The notes: generated by a model not told the origin, from the letters alone. Positions 2,524 to 31,544 are shown, numbered from the stretch's first letter. The stretch is DNA of 32,000 bases from an uncultured Actinomycetes bacterium (GCA_963843975.1 CAWJMG010000003.1:1140001-1172000); one strand, 5' to 3'. Numbers and translations are program-made.

Positions 2524-2560
2524 CATGGCGGTCCGCCAGCCGGACGGACAGACTGAGGTC

Positions 2561-12409: not shown

Positions 12410-14368
12410 ATGCCGTCGCTGCCCCAGGCGTACGACATAGCCGTGAGCATCATCAAGCGCGCCTTCGTCGGCAGCCCCATCGACTCGTCCGAGGGCCACC
12501 GCACCCTCCTGTCCAAGCGCCTCGCCCTGCCGATCTTCTGCAGCGACCCGCTGTCCAGCGTCGCGTACGCGACCGACCAGATCCTGCTCGTCCTCGTGCT
12601 CGGCGGCACCGCCGCGCTGATGTTCACGCCCTGGGTCGCGCTCGCGGTCATCGCGCTCCTGGCGATCGTCGTCACCTCGTACCGACGCACGGTGCACGCC
12701 TACCCGAACGGTGGCGGCGCGTACGCCGTGGCGCAGGACAACTTCGGCCAGCGCACGGCGCTCGTGGCCGCGAGCGCGCTCGTCGTCGACTACATCCTCA
12801 CGGTCGCCGTCAGCGTGACCTCGGGAGTCGCGAACTTCACCTCCGCGTTCCCGGACCTCGCGCCGTACACGGTCGAGATCAGCGTCGGCCTGGTCATCGG
12901 GCTCACGCTGATGAACCTCCGAGGCGTGCGCGAGTCGGGCAAGACGTTCGCTGCGCCGACGTACCTGTTCATCGTCAGCGTCATGACCCTGATCGTCGTC
13001 GGCGGCGTGAAGATGCTGCTCGGCCAGCCGGTGGTCGCGGAGTCGGCGTCGCTGTCGTCGCAGGCCGCGCAGGCCACGGGGGCCGCCGCGATCTTCCTGC
13101 TGCTGCGCGCGTTCGCGTCGGGTTGCACCGCTCTCACCGGTGTCGAGGCGATCTCCAACGGCGTGCCCTACTTCAAGCCGCCGAAGTCGCAGAACGCTGC
13201 GGGCACCCTGCTCGCGATGGGCGTCCTGGCGATCACGATGTTCGGCGGCGTGACGTGGCTCGCGATCCAGGCCGGGGTGAAGTACTCCGAGGACAACGCC
13301 TCGCTCGGCCTCCCGTCGGACGTCGTGCAGCCGACGGTGCTCGCACAGCTCGGCACCGCGGTGTTCGGTGCCGGGTCGATCGGCTTCTTCGCGCTGCAGA
13401 TCTTCACGACGGCGGTGCTCGTGCTCGCCGCGAACACGGCCTACAACAGCTTCCCGATCATGGCCTCGGTGCTGGGCCGCGACGGCTACCTCCCGCGGCA
13501 GTTCGGGCGGCGCGGCGACAAGCTCGTCTTCAGCAACGGCATCCTGTTCCTCGCCGGCTCGTCGGTGCTGCTGATCATCGCGTTCGACGCGAGCGTGACC
13601 CGCCTGGTGCAGCTCTACATCCTGGGCGTGTTCCTCTCGTTCACGATCTCGCAGGCCGGCATGGTGCGGTGCTGGACGCGCACGCTGCGGACCGCGCTGC
13701 CGTCGGAGCGCACCCGGATCCAACGCGACCGCGTCGTGAACGGCCTCGGAGCGGCCGTGACCGCCGTCGTGCTGGTGATCGTGGTCTTCACCAAGTTCAC
13801 GCACGGCGCGTGGCTCGTGATCATCGCCGTCCCGCTGTTCTACGCCGTGATGATCGGCATCCACCGGCACTACCGCGCGCTCGACGACCGTATGGCTCCT
13901 GCGCCCGGCGGCGTGCGGCTGCCCAGCCGCGTGCACGCGATCGTGCTGGTCTCGCGGCTCCACTCGCCGGCCATGCAGGCCCTCGCGTTCGCCCGCGCGA
14001 CGCGCCCCGACCACCTCGAGGCCGTGCACGTGCAGACCGAGCGCAGCGACGTCCCTGCGCTGCAGCAGGCCTGGGCGGACCGCGGGATCCCCGTGCCGCT
14101 GGTGTGCCTGGAGTCGCCGTACCGCGACCTCACGCAGCCGATCCTCGACCACGTGCGGACGCTGCGGCGCACGAGCCCGCGCGACATCGTGGCCGTCTTC
14201 ATCCCCGAGTACGTCGTGAGCCACTGGTGGGAGGCGCTCCTGCACAACCAGAGCGCCCTGCGCCTGCGCGTGCGCCTGCGCCAGGAGAAGGGCGTCATCG
14301 TGATCTCGGTGCCGATGCAGCTCGAGGACGCGGCCCCGACCCAGGCTTTCGAGAACGCGGTGCGGTGA
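12410..14368 (+). CDS. kimA: APC-superfamily permease, KimA (YdaO)-like putative K+/H+ symporter with a cytoplasmic C-terminal domain
   Basis: 652 aa from ATG 12410; an alternative GTG at 12443 gives VSIIKRAFVGSPI. Motifs are KRLALPIFCSDPLSSVAYATDQIL, YPNGGGAY, LVVDYILTVAVS, FASGCTALTGVEAISNGVP, VLVLAANTAYNSFP and KLVFSNGI. A ~200-aa soluble tail ends ...WWEALLHNQSALRLRVRL.... These match my recollection of B. subtilis KimA. A conservative name would be APC family permease. Confidence 0.6.
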   Translation: MPSLPQAYDIAVSIIKRAFVGSPIDSSEGHRTLLSKRLALPIFCSDPLSSVAYATDQILLVLVLGGTAALMFTPWVALAVIALLAIVVTSYRRTVHAYPNGGGAYAVAQDNFGQRTALVAASALVVDYILTVAVSVTSGVANFTSAFPDLAPYTVEISVGLVIGLTLMNLRGVRESGKTFAAPTYLFIVSVMTLIVVGGVKMLLGQPVVAESASLSSQAAQATGAAAIFLLLRAFASGCTALTGVEAISNGVPYFKPPKSQNAAGTLLAMGVLAITMFGGVTWLAIQAGVKYSEDNASLGLPSDVVQPTVLAQLGTAVFGAGSIGFFALQIFTTAVLVLAANTAYNSFPIMASVLGRDGYLPRQFGRRGDKLVFSNGILFLAGSSVLLIIAFDASVTRLVQLYILGVFLSFTISQAGMVRCWTRTLRTALPSERTRIQRDRVVNGLGAAVTAVVLVIVVFTKFTHGAWLVIIAVPLFYAVMIGIHRHYRALDDRMAPAPGGVRLPSRVHAIVLVSRLHSPAMQALAFARATRPDHLEAVHVQTERSDVPALQQAWADRGIPVPLVCLESPYRDLTQPILDHVRTLRRTSPRDIVAVFIPEYVVSHWWEALLHNQSALRLRVRLRQEKGVIVISVPMQLEDAAPTQAFENAVR

Positions 14369-14391
14369 CCGCGGGTGCCAGACTCGGACGC

Positions 14392-15774
14392 ATGAGCAAC
14401 GGACGAGCGGCTGACGGCGCATCCCTGGTGCGCCGTCAGCCGCTAGTCCGCGTCGCCGCCTTCGTCGTCGGCGTCGCCCTCGTCTGGCTCGCAGCCTCGT
14501 TGGCATCGGCGCACGTGCCGCTCGACCTCGCAGCCGTGCTGCTGGTGATGCTCGCCGTCGTCGTGGCGCTCGCGCTGGTCACCGGCCCCGTGCTGGCGGT
14601 GCTCGCGTCGCTCGCCGTCGTGGTCATCGTCAACTGGTACCTCGTCCCGCCGTACGGCACCTTCCAGGTCGCGAGCACCGAGAACCTCGTCGCCCTCGTG
14701 GTCTTCCCACTCGTGGCAGCGGTGACCGCCGGGCTCGTCGAGCTCGCCGCGCGGGCCAGGGCACGCGATGCCGCGTCTGCCTCGCGCGCGATGCTCATGG
14801 GCGACGTCGCCTCCGACACCGCGGGGTCCCTCGAGCGCGTACGACGTGCCCTCGACCTGGCCGAGCTGCAGCTGATCCGCGCCGACGGCACCGTGGTCGC
14901 GCGGCGCGGCGAGCCCACCGCCGACGACGACGTGGTGCTCGACGCCCAGGGCCCCGACGGCTACCGCCTCGTCGGGACGGGAGTCCCGCGCATCGCCGAG
15001 GACCCCGACTTCATCGCCTCGCTCGCAGCGGCAGCCGTGCGCGCCTACGAGAGCGAGCAGCTCGACCTCGAGAAGTCACGATCCGTCGAGCTCGCAGCCG
15101 TCGACGAGGCGCGGTCCGCCCTGCTCGCGAGCGTCGGCCACGACCTTCGTACGCCCCTGGCCGGCCTGCGGCTCGCCGTCGACACGCTGCGCTCCCCCGA
15201 GGTCGAGCTCGACGACGAGGCGCGCACCGAGCTGCTCGACACCGTCGACGCTTCGACGACGCGGCTCGACGAGCTGATCTCCAACCTGCTCGACATGAGC
15301 CGGCTCGAAGCGGGCGGCCTGCCGGTGCGGCGCGAGGCCGTCGCGCTCTACGGCCTCGTCTCCGCGGCCGTCGCGGGCCGAGCCCCGGGCGCCGTGCTGG
15401 TCCAGGTGGACGACGCGCTCCCTCTCGTGTCCGCCGACCCCGTGCTGCTCGAGCGCGTGGTGGAGAACCTCGTGTCCAACGCTCTGCGGCACGGCCGCGC
15501 CGGCGTCGGGCGCCCCGTCGAGGTGCGCGCGACCCCGCGGACCTCGGCCGTCGTCGTCGACGTCGTCGACCACGGGCCGGGGCTCACGGCGGCCGTCACC
15601 GCCGCACCGCCGCTGGCCGCGTCGCGCAGTGCCGACGGCAGCACCGGGCTCGGCCTCGAGATCGTGCGCCGGTTCTGCGTGGCCATGGGCTCCGAGCTCG
15701 AGCTGCGCGAGACCGAGGGCGGCGGGCTCACCGCCCGCGTCACGCTGCCCATCGCCCGTGGGGGTGCGCGATGA
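14392..15774 (+). CDS. sensor histidine kinase, KdpD C-terminal-half type (DUF4118 membrane domain + short GAF-like linker + HisKA + HATPase_c), lacking the N-terminal KdpD/Usp sensor domains
   Basis: TM block ...VVVIVNWYLVPPYGTFQVASTENLVALVVFPLVAAVTAGLV is DUF4118-like. H-box SVGHDLRTPLAGL, N-box ENLVSNALRHG, G-boxes DHGPGL and GLGLEIV are present. The start is ATG 14392, or GTG 14365, which overlaps the KimA-like stop by 4 nt (GTGA). The stop overlaps the RR start (ATGA). Confidence 0.8.
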   Translation: MSNGRAADGASLVRRQPLVRVAAFVVGVALVWLAASLASAHVPLDLAAVLLVMLAVVVALALVTGPVLAVLASLAVVVIVNWYLVPPYGTFQVASTENLVALVVFPLVAAVTAGLVELAARARARDAASASRAMLMGDVASDTAGSLERVRRALDLAELQLIRADGTVVARRGEPTADDDVVLDAQGPDGYRLVGTGVPRIAEDPDFIASLAAAAVRAYESEQLDLEKSRSVELAAVDEARSALLASVGHDLRTPLAGLRLAVDTLRSPEVELDDEARTELLDTVDASTTRLDELISNLLDMSRLEAGGLPVRREAVALYGLVSAAVAGRAPGAVLVQVDDALPLVSADPVLLERVVENLVSNALRHGRAGVGRPVEVRATPRTSAVVVDVVDHGPGLTAAVTAAPPLAASRSADGSTGLGLEIVRRFCVAMGSELELRETEGGGLTARVTLPIARGGAR

Positions 15775-16751: not shown

Positions 16752-18176
16752 ATGTTCAAGAACGCGGAGGAAGTGCTCCGGTTCATCCAGGACGAGGACG
16801 TTGTCTTCGTCGATGTGCGCTTCTGCGACCTGCCCGGAGTGATGCAGCACTTCAACGTGCCGGCGAAGTCCGTCGACATGGCGCTGTTCACCGACGGTCA
16901 GATGTTCGACGGGTCCTCGATCCGAGGCTTCCAGGCCATCCACGAGTCGGACATGAAGATCGTCCCGGACGTGAAGACGGCCTTCCTCGACCCGTTCCGC
17001 AAGGAGAAGACGCTCGTCATCAACTTCTCCATCCAGGACCCCTTCACCGGTGAGCCCTACTCGCGCGACCCGCGCAACGTCGCCGCCAAGGCCGAGGCCT
17101 ACCTCGCCACCACCGGCATCGCGGACACCGCGTTCTTCGCCCCCGAGGCCGAGTTCTACATCTTCGACGACGTCCGCTTCGAGACCAAGCAGAACGCCGG
17201 CTACTACTTCATCGACTCCGTCGAGGGCGCCTGGAACACCGGTCGCGCCGAAGAGGGCGGCAACCGCGGCTACAAGCCCCGCTACAAGGGCGGCTACTTC
17301 CCGGTGCCGCCGGTCGACCACTTCGCCGACCTCCGCGACGCGATGGTCCTCGGCCTCGAGCAGGTCGGCCTCTCGGTCGAGCGCGCGCACCACGAGGTGG
17401 GCACCGCCGGTCAGCAGGAGATCAACTACCGCTTCGACACGCTGCTCCAGGCCGCCGACGACGTCATGAAGTTCAAGTACGTCATCAAGAACGTCGCGTG
17501 GCACGCCGGCAAGACCGTGACCTTCATGCCGAAGCCGCTGTTCGGCGACAACGGCTCGGGTATGCACGTGCACTGCTCGCTCTGGAAGGACGGCGTCCCG
17601 CTGTTCTACGACGAGCTCGGGTACGGCGGCCTCTCGGACATGGCTCGCTGGTACATCGGCGGCCTGCTCAAGCACGCGCCGTCGCTGCTCGCCTTCACCA
17701 ACCCGACGGTGAACTCGTACCACCGTCTGGTGCCGGGCTACGAGGCTCCGGTCAACCTGGTCTACAGCCAGCGCAACCGCTCGGCCTGCATCCGCATCCC
17801 GATCACCGGCTCGAACCCGAAGGCCAAGCGCATCGAGTTCCGCTGCCCCGACCCGTCGAGCAACCCGTACCTCGCGTTCTCGGCGATGCTCATGGCCGGC
17901 CTCGACGGCATCAAGAACAAGATCGAGCCCCCGCAGCCCGTCGACAAGGACCTCTACGAGCTCCCGCCGGACGAGGCCGCTGCGATCCCGCAGGTGCCCG
18001 CGTCGCTGACCGAGGTGCTCGACGCGCTCGAGGCCGACCACGACTTCCTCCTCGAGGGCGGCGTCTTCACGCCCGACCTCATCGAGACGTGGATCGAGTT
18101 CAAGCGCACGATGGAGGTCGACCCGATCCGCCTCCGTCCGCACCCGCACGAGTTCGAGCTCTACTACGACATCTGA
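16752..18176 (+). CDS. glnA: glutamine synthetase, type I (GlnA1-like)
   Basis: 474 aa, with RBS GAGGAGGA at 16741-16748. [29 protein letters not shown]...[14 protein letters not shown]...[13 protein letters not shown]...[13 protein letters not shown]...[28 protein letters not shown]...KDLYELPP. The last motif is an adenylylation-type Tyr context. Confidence 0.95.
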
Positions 18177-18234
18177 GCCGTACCCACCCGGACACAGCCG
18201 AAGGCCCGCCCCCTCGTGGGGCGGGCCTTCGGGC
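18161..18234 (+). repeat. left copy of a perfect 74-bp direct repeat (last 16 nt of glnA + 3' UTR with terminator)
   Basis: CTACTACGACATCTGAGCCGTACCCACCCGGACACAGCCGAAGGCCCGCCCCCTCGTGGGGCGGGCCTTCGGGC is identical, base for base, to 25755-25828. The flanks diverge immediately on both sides. Confidence 0.95.
18198..18232 (+). terminator. glnA intrinsic-terminator-like hairpin
   Basis: CCGAAGGCCCGCCCC-ctcgt-GGGGCGGGCCTTCGG forms a perfect 15-bp stem with a 5-nt loop, 22 nt after the glnA stop. Confidence 0.7.
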
Positions 18235-18315
18235 ATTCCGCCTTCCGAGCCCTTTGGTGTCGTGTCCTCACGAGGGAGCGTTGTGTTGCAACCATCGTTG
18301 CTAACGTGACCGGGT

Positions 18316-18339
18316 CGCGCCCTTCTGGAGGAGGGCGCG
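18316..18339. terminator. hairpin at the distal end of the island operon
   Basis: CGCGCCCT-tctggagg-AGGGCGCG forms a perfect 8-bp stem, extendable with G-U pairs. It lies downstream of the GH32 stop on the minus strand. Confidence 0.35.
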
Positions 18340-18353
18340 GCTCTGTCTAGTCG

Positions 18354-18397
18354 AAGGCCCGGATGCTCCTCCTGGAGGGGAGGCGCATCCGGGCCTT
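18354..18397. terminator. long stable hairpin downstream of GH32 (probable operon terminator)
   Basis: AAGGCCCGGATGC ... GCATCCGGGCCTT forms a 13-bp perfect outer stem. The inner CCTCC/GGAGG pairing gives ~19 bp in total around a GGAG loop. It starts 41 nt after the GH32 stop codon (18438-18440). Confidence 0.45.
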
Positions 18398-18437
18398 GGG
18401 GCGGGTCCCGCGAGCTCGGCGGTATCACCCGATCGAT

Positions 18438-19790
18438 CTACGGGCGCTCCCGTACCCAGAGATCGACATCTACCGGGTCCGACCCGCCCGAGGCGATGCG
18501 CGCCGTCGCCTGCTCCCCCGACGGAACTCGAACCGAACCGACGCCCTCAGCAGCTGACCAAGTCACCTCGAGGATGTCGGCGTCGACGACCATGTCGAGA
18601 GTGCCGCCGCGTCCACGCTCGCCTGGGATGGTCATCAAGACCTCGCCATCAGCGCGTTCCACCGCGACAAGCCCTGAAGCCGCATCGGCAACGAGGGACC
18701 AGCCAGAGTGCGGCATGACGACGTCCACCGTCAGCTGTGAGTCCGCCGCGAGACCGGAGACGAGCCTCCACGGAGTGCTCGCCGGAGGTGCCATATCCGT
18801 CGCCGTTCCCGGCTCCAAGCGCGTCTTCAGCAGGTGAAGGGGAAATCGGCCCCAGAGGGCAGGGTGCTGGGCTACGTGGAGCTTGGCGTCCCTGACGGAC
18901 AGCCGATGAGGCAGGCTCATCGCCGAGCACCAGGGTGACCCTGCGGGTGCCGTGTTGCCTTCCTCCCTGAGCCAGGAGATGGCCGTGGGTGATCCGTCCT
19001 TGTCGACGAAGGTCGTCGTCGCGTAGAGCTGCGGTCCGTGGCTGAAGGTGCCCCATGAACTCGGGCAGAACGTCGACCCGTCGTACTCGCCGAGCGCGTA
19101 GACGACGTTGTGCAGGGTGTCGTCTTCCCACACCGACACCAACATGACCCAGTGCCCGTCGACCTGGAGGAACTGCGGGCACTCCCAGACCTTGCCGCTC
19201 CATACCGGTGCGCGTTCGTCGTTGCTGCGCGAGGCGAGCACGCCCTCGAACTCCCACTCCGTCAGGTCAGCCGACACGCCGTACTGCAGCGCACAGCCGC
19301 CGTGCCCCACGAGCCCGGCCCCGATCACGGCCACCCAGCTGGCCCCGCGCCGCCGGATCTGTGGGTCGCGGAAGGCGATGATGTCGAGTCCCGGAGGAGG
19401 CCCGTCGAGAACGGCGTCCGGTGGGGTGCGGATCCAGCCGGCCATGGTACGAGCAGGTCTCGCGAGGGCCACCGTTCCTCTGCCCCAGTCGTCGTGGGCG
19501 ATGCGGGTGTACGCGAGTACCGGGCCGTCCTGGTCCACGACGGCAGACCCCGACCAGCAGCCGATCTCGCCCACAACTGGTGCGAGAGCGACCTCCAGCT
19601 CCGTCCAGACGATGAGGTCATCGGATAGAGCCTGACCCCAATGGCACGCCGGGTGCCAGGTGACACCGTCCGGGTAGTACTGGAAGAACATGTGGTAGCG
19701 GCCGTCTACGTAGACGATGCCGTGCGGATCGTTCGTCCAGCCCTGCTGGGTTGTGAAGTGCAGCGCCGGGCGCTGCCGATCGTTACTCAC
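18438..19790 (-). CDS. glycoside hydrolase family 32 (beta-fructofuranosidase / sucrose-6-phosphate hydrolase / exo-fructanase type), cytoplasmic
   Basis: 450 aa from GTG 19790 (VSNDRQRPALHFTTQQGWTNDPHG). The three GH32 catalytic motifs are present: WTNDPHG (WMNDPNG), AFRDP (RDP) and WECP (EC). No signal peptide is visible. The upstream 96 codons of the track ORF overlap the GH172 gene and are Arg-rich nonsense. The start overlaps the GH172 stop (GTGAGTAA). Confidence 0.85.
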   Translation of the reverse strand: MSNDRQRPALHFTTQQGWTNDPHGIVYVDGRYHMFFQYYPDGVTWHPACHWGQALSDDLIVWTELEVALAPVVGEIGCWSGSAVVDQDGPVLAYTRIAHDDWGRGTVALARPARTMAGWIRTPPDAVLDGPPPGLDIIAFRDPQIRRRGASWVAVIGAGLVGHGGCALQYGVSADLTEWEFEGVLASRSNDERAPVWSGKVWECPQFLQVDGHWVMLVSVWEDDTLHNVVYALGEYDGSTFCPSSWGTFSHGPQLYATTTFVDKDGSPTAISWLREEGNTAPAGSPWCSAMSLPHRLSVRDAKLHVAQHPALWGRFPLHLLKTRLEPGTATDMAPPASTPWRLVSGLAADSQLTVDVVMPHSGWSLVADAASGLVAVERADGEVLMTIPGERGRGGTLDMVVDADILEVTWSAAEGVGSVRVPSGEQATARIASGGSDPVDVDLWVRERP

Positions 19791-21132
19791 CGGACAGGTA
19801 CCTCCGGCGGATGTCGGCAGCCTGGGCGACGTTGCCGTCCGAAGATGCCCGCGTCTCTTGCGCACGGCCGGCGAGGAAGTCCCGCCGTGCCTTCTGGAAT
19901 GCTTCGTTCCGTTCAGCCGCACCCGCGCGAGCCGCCTTCTGCGCGTCGGTTGTCGCCTGCGCAGGCGTCGCGGTGCCGGGGCCGGTGGCGCGCAGCGGGA
20001 GACGGTCCCCGACCGGTAGGACGCCGAACGGGACCGTGGGCAGCTTCTGATACCAGTAGGCGGTCGAGGAGAAGTCATCAGCGAGGTGGTTGGCGTGCCC
20101 GTGCTCGATGGTGACCTTGATGCGCTTCTTGAACCTCACCGGGTCGGTGATGTGGAAGCGGTAGGAGTGCTGGAAGCCAGGGACGTCTTCTTCGTGGACG
20201 ATGGTCCCGCACATAGGGAATGCGTTGTGCTGCATGCCCCACGCGTGACCGAAGTAGTCCTCGCTGCCAGTGCCGTGAAGGCTGGGAGGCCAGGTGTCGT
20301 CGTCGATGAAGATCATGTCGTCGCCCTCGCCCCACCAGGAACCCTGGAAGTGGCGAACTGCCAGATTGCAGCCGACGTAGTGGCCCTCCCCCTCGATATC
20401 CAGGATGACGTAGTTGCCCTGGCCGTCGAGGTTCGGAACGGATCCGACTTCGTAGCTGTTGGTCTGAAGGTCCGGACCCCAACCGTCGCAAGGCTTCTCC
20501 CTTCGCCATAGCGCGTGGAAGTAGGCGGTGGTCTCAGGCAGCGGCTCCCGGTAAAGCTCGTAGTCGATGTAGAAGTACTGCAAGTAGGGGATGTCGTTCT
20601 GGTTCTCGACCTCGATCCGGGCCCGCGTCCCGAAGGGCATCTGGAAGTAGCTGTTGAACGACGCGCTCCCGCCGAACGTGTGCGTCTCTACGTCCTTGGC
20701 CGATACCGACAAGGGCATCGAGGAGTAGTTGCCCGACAGGGAGTTCATGAGGCCGAAGAAGTCACCGAGCGGCACGAGGACACTCGGGTGCTCCTGGTCG
20801 TCCCAGAAGATCTTGAGCAGGATCTTGCGGTAGTAGTCCGGGTCGACGATCTCCCAGTTCACCCCGAGGGCGTTGTGGATCTCGAGCATGGGGACGCCGA
20901 CGAGCTCGGGTGGGATGAGCCCGGGCCCTGGGGTGATGCGACAGGACTGGGTCATCCAGATGTGGGTGATGCAGCCTGGGCCTTCGATGTCGGCGAGGAC
21001 GACGGATTCACCTGGCCCCACTACCCAGTTGTCCTTGTTGCGACCGCTCTGGTCCCAACTGGACGAGCGCGCGGATCTGGCGTCGCGGACATGGGTGAGG
21101 TCGGCGAGCAGGCCGTGAGGGCCGGGTGCCAT
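19783..21132 (-). CDS. DUF2961 / glycoside hydrolase family 172 protein
   Basis: 449 aa, with RBS AAGGAA 5 nt upstream of ATG 21132. ...GPGCITHIWMT...LLKIFWDDQ...VPLGDFFG...AYFHALWRRE...GEGHYVGCNL...WWGEGDDMIFIDDD...LHGTGSEDYF... are motifs I associate with DUF2961. The last ~70 aa are an Ala/Arg/Gln-rich tail. No signal peptide is visible. Confidence 0.75.
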   Translation of the reverse strand: MAPGPHGLLADLTHVRDARSARSSSWDQSGRNKDNWVVGPGESVVLADIEGPGCITHIWMTQSCRITPGPGLIPPELVGVPMLEIHNALGVNWEIVDPDYYRKILLKIFWDDQEHPSVLVPLGDFFGLMNSLSGNYSSMPLSVSAKDVETHTFGGSASFNSYFQMPFGTRARIEVENQNDIPYLQYFYIDYELYREPLPETTAYFHALWRREKPCDGWGPDLQTNSYEVGSVPNLDGQGNYVILDIEGEGHYVGCNLAVRHFQGSWWGEGDDMIFIDDDTWPPSLHGTGSEDYFGHAWGMQHNAFPMCGTIVHEEDVPGFQHSYRFHITDPVRFKKRIKVTIEHGHANHLADDFSSTAYWYQKLPTVPFGVLPVGDRLPLRATGPGTATPAQATTDAQKAARAGAAERNEAFQKARRDFLAGRAQETRASSDGNVAQAADIRRRYLSGE

Positions 21133-21166
21133 GTGTGTTCCTTTCGAGGTTGAGGAGGGGGCTCGT

Positions 21167-22078
21167 TCAGCCCTTGACGCCGGTCGAGGTGAGGCTCTCG
21201 ACGATCCAGCGCTGCGCCACGAGGTAGACGAGGAAGGCAGGCAGGATCGCGATCGTCGTGGCCGCCATGATCATGGCCACGTCGCCGGTCTTGTAGGGGC
21301 CGAGCATGAGGACGAGGGCGAGCGGCATCGTGGCTGTGTCGATGCTGTTGAGGAAGATCGACGGGGCGAAGTAGGCGTTCCAGGTAGCGAGGAACGTGAT
21401 GACCCCCAGTGCCGAGAGGCCCGGTTTGGCCAGCGGAAGCGCCACGAGGCGGTACACGGTGAACGGACCGGCTCCGTCGATGCGAGCCGCCTCGAGGATC
21501 TCCTCGGGGAGGCCCAAGAAGAACTGCCGCATGAGGAACACGCCGAATGCGCCGGTTAGCGCAGGGAGGATCAGCGACAGCGGGTTGTTGATCAGTCCCA
21601 GGTTCCGCATGAGGATGAACAACGGGATGATCGTCACCTGGACGGGGACCATCAGCGAAGCCAGCAGCGTCACGAGGAGCACGTTTCTCAGCGGGAATCG
21701 CAGGCGGGCGAAGGCATACCCGGCCATGGGGCACAGCACGACTTGGGCGAGGGTCACGACGATCGCGATGACGGCGCTGTTGAGCATGTTGTGCAGGAGC
21801 GGCACGGGCCCGGTGACTGCGTTGATGTAGTTCTCCCCCTGAACGGGGAAGGGCAACCAGTTGGGCGGTAGGTCGTAGGCCTTGGCCGCAGGACGCATCG
21901 ACGTGGAGAACATCCACAGGAACGGCGCCACCATGCCCAAGGCGCCAAGACCAAGGACGATGGTGGCGACTACTCCGCCTGGGCCGGACCTTCGAACTCG
22001 CTGCGACTGCCCTCGACGTCGGGAGGCATGGCGCACCGTCTCCGCAGCTCCGCGCCCTAGGTCTTGCTGGCTACTCAC
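21167..22078 (-). CDS. carbohydrate ABC transporter permease (MalG/CUT1 type)
   Basis: 303 aa with six predicted TM segments. EAA loop: LPEEILEAARIDGAGPFTVYRLVALPLAKPG. The start overlaps the upstream permease stop by 8 nt. Confidence 0.85.
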   Translation of the reverse strand: MSSQQDLGRGAAETVRHASRRRGQSQRVRRSGPGGVVATIVLGLGALGMVAPFLWMFSTSMRPAAKAYDLPPNWLPFPVQGENYINAVTGPVPLLHNMLNSAVIAIVVTLAQVVLCPMAGYAFARLRFPLRNVLLVTLLASLMVPVQVTIIPLFILMRNLGLINNPLSLILPALTGAFGVFLMRQFFLGLPEEILEAARIDGAGPFTVYRLVALPLAKPGLSALGVITFLATWNAYFAPSIFLNSIDTATMPLALVLMLGPYKTGDVAMIMAATTIAILPAFLVYLVAQRWIVESLTSTGVKG

Positions 22079-22997
22079 TGTGGACCCACCTTCGTCGCAT
22101 GCGGAACTGGACCGCCGTCAGGGCGAGGATGATGAGGAACAGGGTCATAGACACGGCAGATGCGTAGCCCATCCGGAACTTCTGGAAGGCCAGCTCGGCG
22201 ATGTACATGACGATCGAGCGGGTGGAGTCCCCCGGCCCTCCACCGGTGAGAACGATGATCGACTCGTAGATCTGGAATGCACCGATCGTGGTGATCGTGA
22301 CGTTGAAGAAGATCGCCGGACTGATCATCGGAGCCACCACTCGACGGAAGCGGGTCCACGGACCGGCTCCGTCGATCTCGGCGGCCTCGATGATGTCCTT
22401 GGGCACGTCCTGGAGCGCCGAGACGAAGATCAACATCGCGAAACCGACGTTGCGCCACGTGTCGACGATGATGACAGTGGCTTTGCCTGCGACGTCACCG
22501 TTGAGCCAGTCGATTCTGGGTAGTCCGACCGAGGTCAGGTAGTAGTTGACGATCCCTGTGTCTTGCTGGAACAGGGCCTGCCAGATCACCGACACGTAGA
22601 CGAGACCGACCAAGGACGGGAAGAAGTAGGCGGACTTCAGGACTTGGCTGATCCCGGCGGGCAGCCGGCGGTTGACAAGGACGGCGAGGATCAACGCGAA
22701 TCCGTTGATCAGGATCACGGCCGCCACCACGTAGATGATCGTGTTCAGGTATGTCGTGTGGAGACGCTCGTCGGTCAGCATCCGCCTGTAGTTGTCCAGG
22801 CCGATGAACTTGGGTGCGGTGACGATGTCGTACTTGGTGAAGCTCAGGTACGCGGCCACGACTAGCGGGCCAAGCACGAACAGCAGAAACCCGAGCACGG
22901 CAGGGCCGATGAACAGGTATCCGGTGACCGCCTCGCTCCGGCGCGCAGGATTGCGCCTGCGCGCCGGAGCCTCGAGGTCGGAGGTCATCGTTGGCAC
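22071..22997 (-). CDS. carbohydrate ABC transporter permease (MalF/CUT1 type)
   Basis: 308 aa. ...AVTGYLFIGPAVLGFLLFVLGPL... with EAA loop VPKDIIEAAEIDGAGPWTRFRRVVAPMISPA. Confidence 0.85.
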   Translation of the reverse strand: MPTMTSDLEAPARRRNPARRSEAVTGYLFIGPAVLGFLLFVLGPLVVAAYLSFTKYDIVTAPKFIGLDNYRRMLTDERLHTTYLNTIIYVVAAVILINGFALILAVLVNRRLPAGISQVLKSAYFFPSLVGLVYVSVIWQALFQQDTGIVNYYLTSVGLPRIDWLNGDVAGKATVIIVDTWRNVGFAMLIFVSALQDVPKDIIEAAEIDGAGPWTRFRRVVAPMISPAIFFNVTITTIGAFQIYESIIVLTGGGPGDSTRSIVMYIAELAFQKFRMGYASAVSMTLFLIILALTAVQFRMRRRWVHSE

Positions 22998-23043
22998 CTC
23001 TCCGCGAGTTCTTGCAGGTGGGGTTTGGACGGGCCGGCCTTCG

Positions 23044-24396
23044 TCAGCCTTCGTCCGCGAAAGCGGTTGTCACTTCCTGGTCGGCCTTGGCGAGTGCCTC
23101 GGAAGCAGGAGTGCCCGCGTAGATCTCCTCCATGGCTCGGGTCACCGCCGGGTCGAGGACGTTGAACACCGTGGGCGCTGCCACCGGCTTCGCCGTGGAC
23201 AGAACCGCGTAGTAGAGCTGCGAGTTCTTGGGAGGTGCAGCAAGGAACTCCGGGCTCGACGCTGCGGTCTTGGAAGCTGGGTTGCCCGACCCGAGCTTGG
23301 CCCACTCTGCCTGCGTTTCGGCGCCGGAGAGCTCCTTGATGTACTCCCAGGCCAGGTCCTTGTTCTCCGACGACGGCGAGATTCCGAAGCCGGAGGTGCC
23401 GAACACGGTCGAGGCCTCGGTCTTCTTCGGCCACGGCAGGATGTCGTAGTCAGCGAAGCCTGCGGTCTTGAACCCGTTGACGAGCCAGTGGCCCGCCCCG
23501 GTCATGGCGATCTTCCCGGCAGGGAACAGCTGGTAGGGGTCTGCGCCCTTGGGTGCCGGCGCCACGCCGTCCTTCACGAGGTCAGCCACGAACTGGTACG
23601 CCTCGGCGACCTTGGGGTCGGTCAGGTTGGATGCCGTCCAGTCTGCGTTCAGTTGGCTGGTGCCGTTGGTGTACAGCCAGGGCGTGAGGCCGAAGTTGAA
23701 GTTCGGGATGCCGAAGCCGTACACCTTGGAGCCGCCACTCCCCGTCGTCAGCTTCTGTGCGTCCGCCTTGAACTCGTCCCATGTCCAGTCAGGGTTCGGG
23801 GTGATGCCTGCCGCCGCGAACATCTTGGTGTTGTAGTAGATCACCATCTGCTGCCACGTCCCTGGCATCAGGTACTGGGTGTCGTTGACAGCGAGACTGT
23901 TGAGCAGGGTCGGGTCCACGTCGCCCGCGATCTTGGCGCCCTCGGGATCGTTGGCGATGTAGTCGCTGATCGGGGCGAACATATCCTTGGACACGCCGAG
24001 GCGGACACCTTCGATGGCGATGTTGATGACGTCGGGAGAGTCACCGGCCGCCTGCTGAGCCACGAGCTTGTTCACGTACTCGGTCCACGTGGTGATGGGC
24101 GTGAAGTTGTCGTTGACCGTGACGTTGGGGTACTTCTTCTTGAACCGCTCCACAACGCCCTTGTAGACCGCCTGATCTGCCGGGTCTCCCCAGTTGGAGA
24201 TGGTCAGAGTGGCCGTGATGTCACTGGGCGGGGCGGTGTAGCCAGCTCCCGATGCCGTGGCGGAGCCTGAGCCGGAGGTCGACGGGCTCCCGTCCGAACT
24301 GCCCGACGAGCAGCCGGTTACGAGCAGGGCTGCACCGAGGAGAGCAGCGCTGGGTGCCAGCAGCCTGCGGAGTCCGGTGCGACGTGTTGCTGACAT
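23044..24396 (-). CDS. ABC transporter extracellular solute-binding lipoprotein (sugar/oligosaccharide, family 1)
   Basis: 450 aa. The signal peptide has a lipobox, LLGAALLVTGCSSGSS. A Ser/Gly-rich linker and a typical SBP_bac_1 body follow (...TLTISNWGDP...YYNTKMF...GAGHW...). RBS AAGGGA. Confidence 0.85.
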   Translation of the reverse strand: MSATRRTGLRRLLAPSAALLGAALLVTGCSSGSSDGSPSTSGSGSATASGAGYTAPPSDITATLTISNWGDPADQAVYKGVVERFKKKYPNVTVNDNFTPITTWTEYVNKLVAQQAAGDSPDVINIAIEGVRLGVSKDMFAPISDYIANDPEGAKIAGDVDPTLLNSLAVNDTQYLMPGTWQQMVIYYNTKMFAAAGITPNPDWTWDEFKADAQKLTTGSGGSKVYGFGIPNFNFGLTPWLYTNGTSQLNADWTASNLTDPKVAEAYQFVADLVKDGVAPAPKGADPYQLFPAGKIAMTGAGHWLVNGFKTAGFADYDILPWPKKTEASTVFGTSGFGISPSSENKDLAWEYIKELSGAETQAEWAKLGSGNPASKTAASSPEFLAAPPKNSQLYYAVLSTAKPVAAPTVFNVLDPAVTRAMEEIYAGTPASEALAKADQEVTTAFADEG

Positions 24397-24399
24397 CGC

Positions 24400-25503
24400 T
24401 CATCCCTTCATGGTTGTGCCCGAACGCCGTCTGGAGGTCGTCGCCGGGCTCTTCTTCCTGCCGCCCAGGGCGGGTGCAGGACGTTGTGGGGCGGGAACCG
24501 CGTCCGGGCCAGAGCAGCAGGACGCGCGGTGGTTGAAGGTCGGGCTGAGGCGGACCGTCGAGGGTCGAGCCTTCGGGTCGGCAAGGCGTCGCAGGAGGAG
24601 GCGCATGGCCTCCCGGCCGATCTCGGCAGCGGGCTGGTCCACTGTGGTCAGCGGCGGCGAGAACAGATCGCCGTACGGCAGGTTGTCGAACGCGGCGAAC
24701 GCGAGATCGTCGGGGATCCGCAGCTGAAGCTGCGCCGCGGCACGGAGGGCGCCGGCCGCCATGGGTGTCGACGCGGTGACGAGGGCAGTCGGACGGTCAG
24801 CTCGTGCGAAGAGCTCCAGCGCCGCCTTCTCCGCGTCACCCGCCATTCCTGTCCCGGTGATGATCAGAGATGGGTCCGGCACGATCCCGTGCCGTTCGAG
24901 TGCCGCCAGGTAGCCGAGCCGTCGTTCGGCCAGGGTGGCAACACCGAGGTCGCCTGCGAGTAGAGCAACGCGCTTGTGGCCGTGGTCAAGGATGTGCGAG
25001 ACCAGCTCCGCCATGGGTTCGAGGTTGTCGACGCCGACCTGGTCGAGGGTCGTGTCCTCAAGACGGTCGAGAAGCACCATGGGGACGCCGGACGACCGCC
25101 ACCGCTCGAGCAGCGCAGGGTCCGATCCCCCCGACGTCGCGATGATCAGCCCGTCGACCCGGCGCTCGGCCAGAACGCGCAAGGCCTCCGCTTCACGGCG
25201 GGGGTCCTCCGCAGAGTTCGCGAGGAGCAACGTCAAGCCGTGCTGGCTCGCCAGCTCCTCAACGCCTCGAACCATCTCGGCGAATACCGGCTGGCCCGTG
25301 TCCGAGACGATCAGGCCGACCGAATCTGTCTGCGACCGGCGCATGGCACGTGCCGAGGCATCCCGCACGTAGCCGGTATCCGCGATGGCGCTCTCCACAC
25401 GTGCGCGGGTGTGGTCCGAGACGTGGCGCGTGCCGTTCATGACGTGGGAGACGGTCGACAGCGAGACCCCCGCGATGCGGGCGACATCGACGATCGTGGC
25501 CAT
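24400..25503 (-). CDS. LacI-family transcriptional regulator
   Basis: 367 aa from ATG 25503. MATIVDVARIAGVSLSTVSHVMNGTRHVSDHTRARVESAI is the LacI HTH, followed by a periplasmic-binding-fold sugar sensor domain. The stop lies 3 nt from the SBP start, so the gene is probably co-transcribed. The upstream 61 codons of the track ORF were rejected. Confidence 0.85.
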   Translation of the reverse strand: MATIVDVARIAGVSLSTVSHVMNGTRHVSDHTRARVESAIADTGYVRDASARAMRRSQTDSVGLIVSDTGQPVFAEMVRGVEELASQHGLTLLLANSAEDPRREAEALRVLAERRVDGLIIATSGGSDPALLERWRSSGVPMVLLDRLEDTTLDQVGVDNLEPMAELVSHILDHGHKRVALLAGDLGVATLAERRLGYLAALERHGIVPDPSLIITGTGMAGDAEKAALELFARADRPTALVTASTPMAAGALRAAAQLQLRIPDDLAFAAFDNLPYGDLFSPPLTTVDQPAAEIGREAMRLLLRRLADPKARPSTVRLSPTFNHRASCCSGPDAVPAPQRPAPALGGRKKSPATTSRRRSGTTMKG

Positions 25504-25516
25504 GTGAAGTCCCATC

Positions 25517-25572
25517 GAAACGATTGCGCGAAACGTTTGCGCCAGAATCTCGCTCGTGTGTGTGCTTGTCAA
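25517..25572 (-). promoter_or_regulatory. candidate island promoter (-35 TTGACA) with a tandem LacI-type operator
   Basis: The minus strand reads TTGACA (25572-25567), then 17 nt, then GATTCT (25549-25544). Next comes GCGCAAACGTTTC GCGCAATCGTTTC (25542-25517), then 13 nt, then ATG. AAACGTTT (25531-25538) is a perfect palindrome of the LacI/CcpA-type core. Confidence 0.4.
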
Positions 25573-25754
25573 CCACCTGCGCACAGTTGGTGGCCACCAC
25601 CTTGAGCCAGCGCCCGCAGCTGCTGTCCGTTTCGCACAGGATTGGCACAACTCGATACCTGGCCGGCCGTACTCGCACACGAGCACATGTCCCGACGTGT
25701 GTAACGCTGCAGGTCAGAGGCCCGGATAGGGCCCGAGACCGGGAGGTTCAGGTG

Positions 25755-25828
25755 CTACTACGACATCTGAGCCGTACCCACCCGGACACAGCCGAAGGCC
25801 CGCCCCCTCGTGGGGCGGGCCTTCGGGC
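25755..25828 (+). repeat. right copy of the perfect 74-bp direct repeat
   Basis: Identical to 18161-18234. It includes the glnA codons for YYDI plus the stop, although no glnA-like sequence precedes it. Confidence 0.95.
25792..25826 (+). terminator. second copy of the glnA terminator hairpin
   Basis: The same 15-bp stem and 5-nt loop as 18198-18232, carried within the right repeat. Confidence 0.6.
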
Positions 25829-25894
25829 TGTCATGGACTCGGTGCGATCGTCGTGGTTGAGTCCGTCCTCCGAGCGATAGGAAGGGATCCCGGC

Positions 25895-26804
25895 ATGCTG
25901 TCGTCCTCGCTGCCGTACTACGACGCCGATGCGCTGATGTCGTTCGGGTACGCCGGTGCGACGGAGGCGATCGTGCGCGCGCTGCGCGACGGAGTCGACC
26001 CCGCGATCGGGCCAGCGCGCAGCAGCGTCGACCTCGCCCACGGCCAGATGCTGCTCATGCCTGCCGAGACGACCACCGCCATGGGCATCAAGGTCGTGAC
26101 GGTGACGCCCGGCAACCCGGCGCAGGGCCTGCCGCTCGTTCACGCGCAGTACCTGCTCTTCGACCGCGCGACACTCGCGCCCACGGCCATGCTCGACGGC
26201 ACGGCTCTCACCACCCTGCGCACACCGGCCGTGTCCGTGGCCGCCGTCCTGCGCCGGCTCCCCGACCGCCCCATCCACCTCGTGGTGATCGGCAGCGGCG
26301 CACAGGCCCACGGGCATGTCGCGGCGTTCGCGGCCGTCCGGGCGCTGGAGACGGCGAGGTACCTCGTGCGTGACCCATTGCGAGCACCGGTCGCGGCCGA
26401 TGCGCTCGGCAGCGCCGAGGCCCGGCGACGCCTGCACGAGGCCGATGTGATCGTCTGTGCCACGAATGCCCGCACCCCGGTGCTCGCGACCGACGACGTA
26501 CGCGACGACGCGATCGTCGTGGCCGTCGGGGCCTACGAGCCACATGTCCGTGAGCCTCGACGGCGCCCTGCTGGCACGGTCGACGGTTGTGGTCGAGGAC
26601 ATCTCGACCGCGCTGCGCGAGGCCGGCGACGTCGTGCTCGCGATCACCGAAGGCACACTGAATGCCGACACCCTCGTCCGCATGCGCGACGTCGTGCTCG
26701 GGACGGTCTCCCCGCTCGACGACAGGCCGCTCGTGGTCAAGACCGTCGGCATGGCCTGGGAGGACCTCGCCGTCGCCGAGGCCGTCGTGGCCGCGTCCGG
26801 TTGA
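25895..26804 (+). pseudogene. ornithine cyclodeaminase / mu-crystallin family protein, with an apparent +1 frameshift near 26555
   Basis: Frame 2 gives MLSSSLPYYDADAL...MGIKVVTVTPGNP...LDGTALTTLRTPAVS...LVVIGSGAQAHGHV...VIVCATNARTPVL...VVAVGAYEPHVRE. Frame 3 then gives LDGALLARSTVVVEDISTALREAGDVVLAI...VVKTVGMAWEDLAVAEAVV, ending at 26804. An RBS GGAAGGGA precedes ATG 25895. Repair would give a 302-aa product. Confidence 0.8.
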
Positions 26805-26871
26805 CGCCCGCGGGCCGCGGCTCCAGCTCGCTGTCCGCGACCCGGCGCGCGAGCCACACGTCGCGCGGCGC

Positions 26872-28161
26872 TCAGGCGTAGCGGAGCAGGAGGTAAGGAA
26901 CGCACAGGGCGATCGACAGAGCCGCCGTGGGTACGCCGTACTTCAGCCACTGCGCGAACGAGATGTGCAGGCCGTTGCGCGCCGCGATGCCCACGATGAC
27001 GACGTTGGCGCTGGCGCCGACGAGGGTCGCGTTGCCACCGAGGTCGGCACCGAGCGCGAGGGCCCACCACAGCGAGCCGTCCTGCCCGAGCGCCGGGTAC
27101 GTCGTCACGAGCGACTCGACCACCGGCGACATCGCGGCCACGTAGGGGATGTTGTCCACGACGGCGGAGATCACCCCCGACGCGCCGAGCACGAGGATCA
27201 GCGTCGGGCCCACCGCGCCACCGGTGGCGCCCGCGAGGACGTCGGCGAGCGCCTGCAGTGCACCCACGTGGACGAGTGCCCCGACGAGGACGAACAGACC
27301 CATGAAGAACAGGAGGGTCTCCCACTCGACGTCGGCTACGAGCTCCTGCGGTCGCAGCGGTGACAGCAGGATGAGAACGCCGGCACCAACGATCGCAACC
27401 ACGGATGGCGCGACGCCCGTCTGCCGCTGCAGCAGGAACCCGACCAGGATCAGCGCCAGCACCACGCCGCTGCGACGCAGCAGCCGGTGGTCCGTGATGG
27501 CCTCGCGCTCGTCGAGCGCCATCAGCGCCGACGCCTTGGCCGGGTCACCCACGAGCGCCGAACGGAAGAGAACCCGCGCGAGCAGCAGGAACGCGGCGAG
27601 GATCACGAGCACTATCGGGGCGAGGTGCGCGAGGAAGTCGGTGAACGTGAGTCCGGCCCTGCTGCCGATGATGATGTTGGGCGGGTCACCCACGAGTGTC
27701 GCGGTGCCGCCGATGTTGGACGCGAGCGCCTCGGCGATGAGGAACGGGATGGGGTTGAGACCGAGCCTGTCGCAGACGAGCAGCGTCACCGGCGCCACGA
27801 GCAGCACGGTGGTGACGTTGTCGAGCAGTGCGGAGGCCCCAGCGGTCACCAGCACCAGCAGCACGAGCACGCGGTAAGGCCGGCCGCGAGCGAGCTTCGC
27901 TGACCGGATTGCCAGGAACTCGAACACGCCGGTCCGCCGGATCACTCCGACGACGAGCATCATCCCCAGGAGCAGGAAGATGACGTCCCAGTCGATGCCC
28001 GTCTCGTGCGAGTAGAAGGCCTCCTCGGACCGGACGATCCCGAAGCCGAGCACGAGCGCCGCTCCCCCGAGCGCGGCCGCCACCCGGTGGATCCGCTCGG
28101 TCGCGATGAGAACGTAGACGCCGACGAAGAGACCGACGGCGACCCAGGCGATCGGTGTCAT
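26872..28161 (-). CDS. ArsB/NhaD-family (SLC13-like) anion/ion transporter
   Basis: 429 aa and highly hydrophobic. ...LVLVTAGASALLDNVTTVLLVAPV...ASNIGGTATLVGDPPNIII... and ...DNIPYVAAM...LGGNATLVGASANVV are the duplicated hairpin motifs of this family. Confidence 0.8.
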   Translation of the reverse strand: MTPIAWVAVGLFVGVYVLIATERIHRVAAALGGAALVLGFGIVRSEEAFYSHETGIDWDVIFLLLGMMLVVGVIRRTGVFEFLAIRSAKLARGRPYRVLVLLVLVTAGASALLDNVTTVLLVAPVTLLVCDRLGLNPIPFLIAEALASNIGGTATLVGDPPNIIIGSRAGLTFTDFLAHLAPIVLVILAAFLLLARVLFRSALVGDPAKASALMALDEREAITDHRLLRRSGVVLALILVGFLLQRQTGVAPSVVAIVGAGVLILLSPLRPQELVADVEWETLLFFMGLFVLVGALVHVGALQALADVLAGATGGAVGPTLILVLGASGVISAVVDNIPYVAAMSPVVESLVTTYPALGQDGSLWWALALGADLGGNATLVGASANVVIVGIAARNGLHISFAQWLKYGVPTAALSIALCVPYLLLRYA

Positions 28162-28622
28162 GCGATGAGTCGATCGACCAGACCGTTGACGGTCACCACG
28201 CCGAGGAACCGCCCCGCGTCCACGACAGCGACGAGCGGCACGTGGGCGGCGGACATCACCGCCGCGATCTCCACCACGGTCGCGTCACCGTCCACAGCGG
28301 TGTCGGGCGCGCGCTCGGGCCGGTCGAGCGCCCGCACGAGGTCGGCCACGGTCAGCGTGCCGAGCGTGGCCGACAGGGCGTCGGCCGACGCCTCGTCCCA
28401 TACCCGCGCGAGCGAGGGGTCGTCCCGCACGTAGGTCGGCAGCGCGACCCGCAGCACCTGCGACGCCGGGATCACGAGGAACCGGCCGTCGGCGTCCACC
28501 ACAAGCCCAGGGAGGCCGGCGGACACGAGGGCGCGCAGGGCGTCGGTCAACGGCTGGCCGGGGACGACCACTGGCGCCGGAACGGCGATGTCTCGGGCTC
28601 GCACGCCGCGAGTCTGCCGCAC
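28158..28622 (-). CDS. CBS-domain pair protein
   Basis: ~150 aa. ...VVPGQPLTDALRALVSAGLPGLVVDADGRFLVI... and ...TVVEIAAVMSAAHVPLVAVVDAGRFLGVVTVNGLVDRL are two CBS motifs. The stop overlaps the transporter start (ATGA). The start is GTG 28622 or 28604. The upstream part of the track ORF was rejected. Confidence 0.65.
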   Translation of the reverse strand: MRQTRGVRARDIAVPAPVVVPGQPLTDALRALVSAGLPGLVVDADGRFLVIPASQVLRVALPTYVRDDPSLARVWDEASADALSATLGTLTVADLVRALDRPERAPDTAVDGDATVVEIAAVMSAAHVPLVAVVDAGRFLGVVTVNGLVDRLIA

Positions 28623-28669
28623 CCAAGCCCCGGGGTGCCCGCGTAAGTGGCCAGTGGCCCGCTTGTAGG

Positions 28670-29719: not shown

Positions 29720-29768
29720 ACCGCCGTCGCGGAGGGATGCCGGCGGGTGTTCTGTACGACACACCTCG

Positions 29769-30134
29769 ATGCCTGGCGCGCAACGCCGCACTCTGCAGGA
29801 CGACGCTTCAAGCGTGGCTGCATCAACGAGCGTTGAACTGTCCCGCCCACGGCCGTCCGACCACGCCTCGGTCGCACTGCTCCAGGCCGTGGCTGACCCC
29901 GTGCGCTGGACAGTGCTGAACCGCCTCGCAGCACAGCCCGCATGCGTGTGCGACATCCAGGAGCACGTGCCCGTCGCCGCGAACCTCCTCAGCTATCACC
30001 TGAAGGTGCTGCGCGACGCCGGCCTGGTCACGGCCACGCGTCGTGGCCGATGGATCGATTACGCCCTCGCCACCGACGCCCGAGACCGCATCGCCGCCGC
30101 ACTGCCGACGTCTCCGGGCGGCAACCGGCCATGA
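29769..30134 (+). CDS. ArsR/SmtB-family transcriptional regulator
   Basis: ...LLQAVADPVRWTVLNRLAAQPACVCDIQEHVPVAANLLSYHLKVLRDAGLVTATRRGRWIDYAL is a winged HTH with a CVC metal/metalloid-site-like motif. The start is uncertain: ATG 29769 or an in-frame GTG ~45 nt downstream. The stop overlaps the next start (ATGA). Confidence 0.8.
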   Translation: MPGAQRRTLQDDASSVAASTSVELSRPRPSDHASVALLQAVADPVRWTVLNRLAAQPACVCDIQEHVPVAANLLSYHLKVLRDAGLVTATRRGRWIDYALATDARDRIAAALPTSPGGNRP

Positions 30135-31183: not shown

Positions 31184-31211
31184 CCCTCCCCCACCCACCC
31201 AGGAGAAGTCC

Positions 31212-31454: not shown

Positions 31455-31544
31455 GACACGCCTGATACCCCCCAGGGTGTCTGCAGGATCACGTTCCGAA
31501 TCAGCCCCTCGGGCGAGGCACGCGCCTACGGTCGACAGGTGACC

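Follow-up and report, generated by a model that had tools for sequence, protein, structure and literature searches.

How does a catabolic operon with no integrase of its own come to lie between two exact copies of the end of a conserved gene? The question is posed by a 32,000-nt stretch of DNA (hereafter the window) from an uncultured Actinomycetes bacterium (GCA_963843975.1, CAWJMG010000003.1:1140001-1172000), in which glnA, the gene for a type I glutamine synthetase, is followed by its terminator, an island of about 7.5 kb, and a second copy of the glnA 3′ end with that terminator. Our analysis suggests that the island is probably, though by no means certainly, an integrase-less element bounded by attachment (att) sites, comparable to the cis-mobilizable elements (CIMEs) and lodged at a site within glnA that serves tyrosine integrases. 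Below, T and T′ denote the left and right repeat copies, and mL and mR the margins of the island beside them (Table 1).

The two repeat copies agree exactly over 74 bp and are the sole such pair within 32 kb, a match that cannot have arisen by chance at this scale. The repeat begins 16 nt before the glnA stop codon (C TAC TAC GAC ATC TGA), leaves glnA intact, and encloses a hairpin with a 15-bp stem; the 80 nt at 18161-18240 fold at -42.6 kcal/mol (z = -5.0 against shuffles). The initial annotation had described the repeat, its onset in glnA and its terminator correctly, and had also stated that the flanks diverge at once, which holds except on the left, where 5/9 of the next nucleotides still agree (83 nt at 95%). 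This residual match is the rest of the canonical 24-nt glnA core considered below, with TTCAGGTG at the right copy facing TTCGAGCT in glnA and agreeing at 4/8 positions. All relatives examined have a single T copy and no island. In close relatives that copy is 94-97% identical, differing from the window copies at 2-5 positions; together with the identity of the two window copies, this fits a recent event or gene conversion. Derived substitutions common to both copies had been considered as proof of duplication in situ, but this argument is weakened by contig L100, which has the same CTTCGGGC tail.

Between the copies lie six co-oriented minus-strand genes identified by Pfam. The island is foreign in composition: its guanine-plus-cytosine (GC) content is 0.653, against 0.730 in the left flank and 0.699 in the right, and GC at third codon positions spans 0.816-0.862 in the island genes (n=6) versus 0.874-0.991 in the backbone (n=17), two disjoint ranges (Mann-Whitney U=0, p=2e-5). 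Pfam searches detected no recombinase domain in the six island open reading frames (ORFs) or in neighboring ORFs, and a tblastn search of the window with the integrase of a glnA-site element, that of contig L103 described below, returned only matches with E > 2. A single minus-strand operon, a lower GC content judged from hand counts, and the lack of any integrase, recombinase or transposase ORF had each been proposed from the sequence, and all three are borne out.

A core attachment site can be delimited at the end of glnA. The last 24 nt of the gene (18153-18176, TTCGAGCTCTACTACGACATCTGA) occur in the attP of contigs L103 and L104 and in the repeats of loci L021 and L073. The first two were the only matches in a scan of viral contigs (IMG/VR) for these 24 nt: L103 carries a capsid gene, non-glnA DNA with tandem AGTCCGCA, TTCGAGCTGTACTACGACATCTGAGCC and further motifs, and, 30 nt on, a PF00589 tyrosine integrase, while L104 carries portal and capsid genes and a similar site. 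The L103 integrase was then searched by tblastn in 80 diverse actinobacterial glnA loci, and homologs (42-72% identical) were detected downstream of and convergent with glnA in 7/80 genomes. They lie less than ~500 nt from glnA in six loci and 4.4 kb downstream in L053; the gene is intact in L016, L032 and L073, frameshifted in L059, partial in L021 and a fragment in L017. In L073 (10460-19998), a 32-bp exact repeat (-26 to +5 relative to the stop codon) surrounds 9.5 kb encoding the integrase, an HTH repressor, DUF3631, a prohead protease and a capsid protein. In L021 (11402-18838), a 24-bp exact repeat surrounds 7.4 kb with the partial integrase, GmrSD and AAA_15/AAA_21. L073, L103 and L104, in which the gene families named for L073 occur, resemble capsid-forming phage satellites (~9.5 kb), and L021 a decaying element with defense-type cargo at the glnA end. 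With L021 there is a direct precedent for an integrase decaying here. The two viral contigs, the seven loci among 80, L073 and L021 thus indicate that the glnA-end site is widely used, that integrases decay there, and that identity tracts measure 24-32 bp. These sequence comparisons indicate that the glnA 3′ end is the attB of a tyrosine-integrase family, widely used in Actinobacteria; a search of the available literature library for glnA as attB returned no relevant description.

The right end of the island resembles the end of such an element. There the sequence reads GGAGG TTCAGGTG followed directly by CTACTACGACATCTGA, and the junction looks like an attR hybrid core, with a putative element-type half-core, a host-type core and then the native terminator. 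Upstream of the half-core, mR holds a tandem motif pair and a box. When the P arms of L021, L073, L103 and L104 are aligned on the core, their own tandem motif pairs fall in the columns of the mR pair; moreover, a AGGTCAGAGG-like box is common to mR and the P arms of L021, L073 and L104, and is missing in L103. In these four elements the arm motif is also present on the P′ arm, between core and integrase gene. Predicted arm sites in the window show the P-arm-like layout on the right only, with none beside the left copy. The claim that the repeat bears the attL/attR signature therefore stands in part: the glnA end is an integrase core and the right junction is P-arm-like, but the left junction is not a canonical attL. 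Matches to the mR motif in viral contigs came only from unrelated phages of ~50% GC and were judged to be chance. A reading of mR as a decayed remnant of the glnA 3′ end was rejected, the matches being only patchy, whereas the second glnA copy in contig L099 is clearly such a remnant. The junction of mR with T′ had no match in viral contigs. The left margin, mL, had no match beyond this island lineage; within it, a low-GC patch at 18280-18312 contains tandem or palindromic GTTGCAACCATCGTTGCTAAC, operator-like and at the 3′ end of the operon.

Independent support comes from L102, a Logan contig from ERR14064712 and thus a separate short-read assembly. Its identity to the window is 99.1% across mL and the GH32 gene and into the GH172 gene, and 95.8% in T. 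Since L102 reproduces it, the junction of T, mL and operon is real and shared. Leftward of T, however, L102 has no glnA, and instead the identical junction, GGAGGTTCAGGTG joined to CTACTACGACATCTGA (CTACTAC...). The adjoining arm (mR′) is 74% identical to mR over 132 nt, and its motif is a perfect tandem, GTTTGGCACAG GTTTGGCACAA. This arm runs into the stop of an unrelated 329-aa gene (2348-3337, the ORF being cut at the contig end), which has no Pfam or PADLOC match and presumably belongs to the cargo of a further glnA-site element. Most simply, another element of the same family would occupy the glnA core of the L102 strain, upstream of T, mL and the operon. Because the junction recurs beside a different gene in L102, arm, half-core and core form an element-end module and not a random joint.

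What the data show is the repeat, the island's genes with their deviating composition, a glnA end that serves as attB, a right junction resembling a P arm, a variable site and no integrase. On this footing we favor the following course of events. A member of the glnA-site family, whose members appear to be small, capsid-encoding, phage- or satellite-like tyrosine-integrase elements, would have integrated canonically at the glnA core, with the last 24 nt as attB. The right copy with mR would be the attR scar of that element, its integrase and P′ arm having been lost, and the left copy would be glnA's own end and terminator. This is not a simple one-step integration of 7.5 kb: canonical duplications measure 24-32 bp, and here 58 nt of terminator are duplicated as well, so an extra recombination step is needed. 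In that second step most of the element, including integrase gene and P′ arm, may have been replaced through recombination with a closely related allele bearing glnA, T, mL and the operon, the crossover being homologous within glnA and the other join illegitimate, immediately left of mR, which would leave T on both sides. Alternatively, aberrant excision may have captured T before re-integration. The operon was acquired horizontally; its route between att sites, the order of events and any present mobility are what we infer. The mechanism is already known, that of a decayed or hitch-hiking island, and no new one is involved.

Several observations weigh against this reading. The left junction is without P′-arm motifs, the arm motif occurring in the window solely in mR; the likeness of mR to P arms is architectural (motif type, spacing, a short box) and not alignable homology; and each short mR motif is singly non-significant within the window. 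Identity reaches 58 nt past the stop codon, against the 24-32 bp of canonical elements, and the window contains neither an integrase nor an integrase fragment. An empty site of the form glnA-T-OCD was not found in relatives. Finally, L102 is k-mer-based and could be a chimeric path through T, although the junction of mR′ with T is itself real sequence.

At least three assemblies, whose GH32 is at least 98% identical, contain the island, and relatives that are 97% identical lack it; it thus behaves as a strain-level gain/loss trait. RecA-dependent recombination across the 74-bp repeats could remove it without a scar. Integrase-mediated excision in trans is doubtful, because the attL has no arm sites.

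The surroundings of the island vary among relatives. Longivirga aurantiaca (Sporichthyaceae) is the closest named organism, sharing 469/474 GlnA residues; related contigs come from wastewater and other metagenomes, and in a GlnA search of genome contigs the closest among the matches listed was 90% identical. Without the insert, the initial annotation expected glnA, terminator and the OCD-family gene in succession, but the relatives are arranged otherwise. In four JGI contigs (L095-98; 97% nucleotide identity, GlnA 472/474), T is followed by a Zn-ribbon/peptidase gene corresponding to window 28655 onward; the whole of window 18242-28654 is missing, including the CitMHS and CBS pair. CitMHS abuts T in L001/L085 (GlnA 90%), and MarR, a hypothetical gene and a CLC channel stand between T and CitMHS in L081/L084. 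After T, L083 has Fic and a transporter, and L092-94 a methyltransferase, a two-component system and a copper oxidase. L100 reads glnA-T-kdpFABCDE-OCD, and L099 reads T, small ORF, LuxR/AAA_16, degenerate glnA 3′ copy, CitMHS, CBS, OCD and malic enzyme. Among relatives with 90% or more GlnA identity, seven or more different contents occur past the terminator. As the content past T is different in every relative examined, the stretch past glnA is a hypervariable hotspot, and OCD itself lies within the variable region. No OCD homolog exceeded 82% identity, and hence no exact empty site was found; a metagenome scan with a 30-nt repeat pattern detected two loci only, both without the island.

Two loci hold inserts with longer duplicates of the glnA end. 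In L099 (1-3465), a 107-aa ORF and a 901-aa LuxR/AAA_16 regulator are inserted past the glnA terminator with no integrase; the second copy there comprises ~150 nt of the glnA 3′ end and terminator, ~80% identical, internally deleted and directly before CitMHS. In L010 (11306-13107, Terrabacter sp. Root85), glnA is followed 1.7 kb downstream by a duplicate of its 3′ end (122 nt, 89% identical), and the insert consists of a single 519-aa membrane-protein ORF, again with no integrase.

Integration hotspots between core genes are turned over through homologous recombination, including homology-facilitated illegitimate recombination. The strongest competing account, which we nevertheless regard as unlikely, is that no site-specific recombinase ever acted here. 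Instead, homology-facilitated illegitimate recombination, or Campbell-type RecA integration of a circularized fragment carrying the glnA end and terminator, would have inserted the operon, and the 74-bp duplication would be the donor anchor beyond an illegitimate joint. The hotspot resembles such systems in its conserved left anchor, glnA, in the seven or more cargos among relatives, and in the partial anchor duplicates of L099 and L010, which are integrase-less inserts whose glnA 3′ duplicates are longer, degenerate and do not stop at the canonical core. Moreover, the site varies among close relatives, none of which has an integrase there; the left junction has no P′ arm; identity spans the whole native terminator; and identical copies, where relatives differ at 2-5 positions, fit a very recent homologous event or gene conversion. 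However, recombination of this kind predicts neither a conserved arm-like module beside the repeat nor a boundary at an integrase core. It leaves unexplained the module conserved beside another gene in L102 (identical junction, 74% over 132 nt) and the resemblance of the mR motif layout to the P arms of proven glnA-site elements, as well as a residual similarity that sets in at -24/-25, the start of canonical cores.

A different possibility, distinctly improbable in our view, is that the island is a still-functional mobilizable unit with mR-T-mL as its attP, moved by an integrase acting in trans from elsewhere or by a co-resident glnA-site element, L102 then representing a circular or tandem form. 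The order mR′-T-mL-GH32 in L102 is one that a circle junction, or an att site inside a tandem array, would produce, both repeat copies are perfectly identical, and trans- and cis-mobilization of integrase-less att-bounded elements is documented (PMC5704250, PMC8369830). Against this, the L102 arm is 74% identical where the operon is 99.1% identical, the gene past the arm is not lacI, a separate element at the glnA core upstream of T, mL and the operon explains L102 more simply, and mL contains no copies of the arm motif, so the P′ arm is missing. A more specific form of this idea, to which we give still less credence, would have mR-T-mL as a working attP and the operon as a catabolic cis- or trans-mobilizable island using the att site, and perhaps the integrase and capsids, of the glnA-targeting phage-satellite-like elements; if so, sugar-use traits would hitch-hike between strains on satellites. 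An assembly artefact, in which a wrong path was taken through a 74-bp repeat common to two strains or to chromosome and episome, is very improbable: the source is apparently a metagenome-assembled genome of an uncultured Longivirga-like lineage and its OCD gene has a 1-nt indel, but the 2.76-Mb length of the contig on record suggests that reads were long enough to span 7.5 kb, both the T-mL-GH32 junction (at 99%) and the junction of mR with T recur in the independent short-read assembly L102, and a mis-threaded path would still need real molecules with both island-T junctions, whether a circle or an integrated copy.

Table 1. Features of the glnA locus and its island, in window coordinates.
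Feature	Position	Strand	Basis or remark
glnA, type I glutamine synthetase, 474 aa	16752-18176	+	Pfam Gln-synt_N/Gln-synt_C
Left repeat copy T, last 16 nt of glnA and native hairpin terminator	18161-18234	+	
Left margin mL, 81 nt, GC 0.58	18235-18315	.	Tandem GTTGCAACCAT / CGTTGCTAACG; no P′-arm motifs
Operon's own 3′ hairpins (terminators)	18316-18397	-	Kept with the same cassette in L086 and L091
GH32 beta-fructofuranosidase, 450 aa	18438-19790	-	Pfam PF00251
GH172/DUF2961 protein, 449 aa	19783-21132	-	Pfam PF11175; GH172 domains recorded on the L086/L091 orthologs
ABC transporter permease	21167-22078	-	Pfam BPD_transp_1
ABC transporter permease	22071-22997	-	Pfam BPD_transp_1
Extracellular solute-binding protein, 450 aa	23044-24396	-	Pfam SBP_bac_1/8
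LacI-family repressor, 367 aa, first gene of the operon, ATG at 25503	24400-25503	-	Pfam; start read in sequence
Promoter-like TTGACA-17-GATTCT, then LacI-type operator AAACGTTTCGCGCAATCGTTTCG	25512-25571	-	Sequence reading and BLAST
Right margin mR, P-arm-like	25626-25754	+	Tandem motif, box, half-core
mR tandem 11-nt motif pair GTTTCGCACAG/GATTGGCACAA	25629-25650	+	107-126 nt from core
mR box CAGGTCAGAGG	25710-25720	+	
mR diverged half-core TTCAGGTG	25747-25754	+	Positions -24 to -17, canonical core onset
Right repeat copy T′	25755-25828	+	With mR, resembles attR
OCD/mu-crystallin gene, 1-nt insertion near 26553	25895-26804	+	Corrected product 302 aa
CitMHS transporter and CBS-domain gene	26872-28161 and 28158-~28620	-	Pair abuts glnA terminator in L001/L085

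What the island carries can be predicted from its gene families. The initial annotation spoke of fructan use, but the set of genes points elsewhere. The operon BBDE_2039-2043 of Bifidobacterium dentium comprises LacI, GH32, the GH172 enzyme alphaFFase1 and an ABC transporter, and serves the use of difructose dianhydride I (DFA I); the founding GH172 enzyme, from this operon, is a DFA I synthase/hydrolase, and the strain was reported growing on DFA I (PMC8605356). The function of the GH172 family is taken from the same source. The set of protein families joined in one operon (LacI, GH32, GH172/DUF2961, ABC importer) is identical, although B. dentium is only distantly related to the window organism and the likeness rests on family content. 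Because the families are the same, the operon probably serves to take up and hydrolyze DFA I, inulobiose or alpha-fructofuranosides, and not polymeric fructan. The GH32 protein differs from the 450-aa P0121 at one residue (99.8% identity by blastp), with the next nearest proteins at 73-74%. P0121 is encoded on a 2.76-Mb contig together with P0227, a GlnA with the same sequence as that of the window.

The same six-gene cassette also occurs in L086, a contig of 786 kb, and in L091, in each case at an unrelated locus and with 80-83% DNA identity over window 18316-25546; its GC content is 3-7 points below the flanks in each host. The LacI-type operator is kept in both (BLAST, 31 nt at 97%). In L086 the cassette is bracketed by imperfect ~150-nt direct repeats, 84-90% identical (3878-4018 and 11532-11685), in which a hairpin and 2-3 tandem GTGCCATTTC motifs occur; next to the right copy stands a tRNA-3′-like fragment, GGTTCGAGTCCTCTCGGGCGCGC. 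These repeats may be the att sites of a tRNA-targeting element family. ARAGORN and Rfam found no tRNA or other RNA gene beside the right repeat copy, in the L086 repeats or anywhere in the window.

Beyond the right copy, the OCD gene is broken at 26540-26560, where GAGCCTCGAC stands in place of the expected GAG CTC GAC. The corrected 302-aa protein aligns end to end with homologs of 298-311 aa; the gene is either a recent pseudogene or the product of a consensus indel error. Further downstream, window 29724-31464, with an ArsP-type permease, is swapped in L095 for a shorter segment (3591-4183) with a STAS-domain gene between flanks of 93% identity, forming a second variable spot ~1 kb past the first. 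Upstream of glnA, within 12452-15774, a permease-like ORF ending at 14368 and a histidine kinase starting at ~14391/14449 occupy different frames as separate genes, with a 22-nt near-perfect hairpin (14400-14450) between them; in L083 permease and kinase are fused into one protein of 1113 aa, to which the window halves are 81% and 55% identical. This kinase/regulator block varies in presence and absence among close relatives.

Among known systems, the island is closest to the CIMEs, att-bounded elements without integration genes that are decayed remnants derived from integrative and conjugative elements (ICEs) or integrative and mobilizable elements and keep attL and attR (PMC5704250). CIMEs can accrete in tandem with a related element and be mobilized afterwards; among Actinobacteria, the Streptomyces scabiei thaxtomin region, TR1, is a precedent for such elements (PMC5704250, PMC8369830). 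The island likewise consists of an accessory operon between direct repeats derived from an att site at the 3′ end of a conserved gene, contains no integrase or transfer genes, and shares its site with other elements of the family, with hints of tandem or adjacent elements in L102. Att-bounded and without integration genes, it agrees in part with the definition of a CIME, but its left att site is incomplete: an arm and the look of a proper att site are confined to the right end, and the left end is a core with the duplicated native terminator and no P′ arm. The island further differs in that its 74-bp identity tract is two to three times that of integrase-bearing glnA-site elements, and that those elements look like small capsid-encoding phages or satellites and not ICEs. 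CIMEs at the 3′ end of fda are known in Streptococcus thermophilus. With the tyrosine-integrase prophages and satellites (L073, L103, L104, L021) the island shares the target gene, the core position (-24/-26 to the stop codon), the repeat orientation and the P-arm layout with tandem motifs and a AGGTCAGAGG box; unlike the satellites of the L073 type, it has no integrase, HTH, DUF3631, protease or capsid genes, and its cargo is a catabolic operon. Transposons and insertion sequences differ more, as the island has no transposase domains and its duplication is 74 bp against 2-15 bp; no terminal inverted repeats were found at 18235/25754 among the pairs listed.

Overall, the locus offers a concrete example of a metabolic trait residing in an att-site hotspot after the delivering element has decayed. 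By analogy with the B. dentium operon, the trait would let an uncultured Longivirga-like actinobacterium import and hydrolyze sugars of the difructose-anhydride type. More generally, the analysis identifies the glnA 3′ end as a common att site for small integrase-plus-capsid elements in Actinobacteria, which helps in the annotation of islands and prophages and in detecting strain-level gain and loss in metagenomes.

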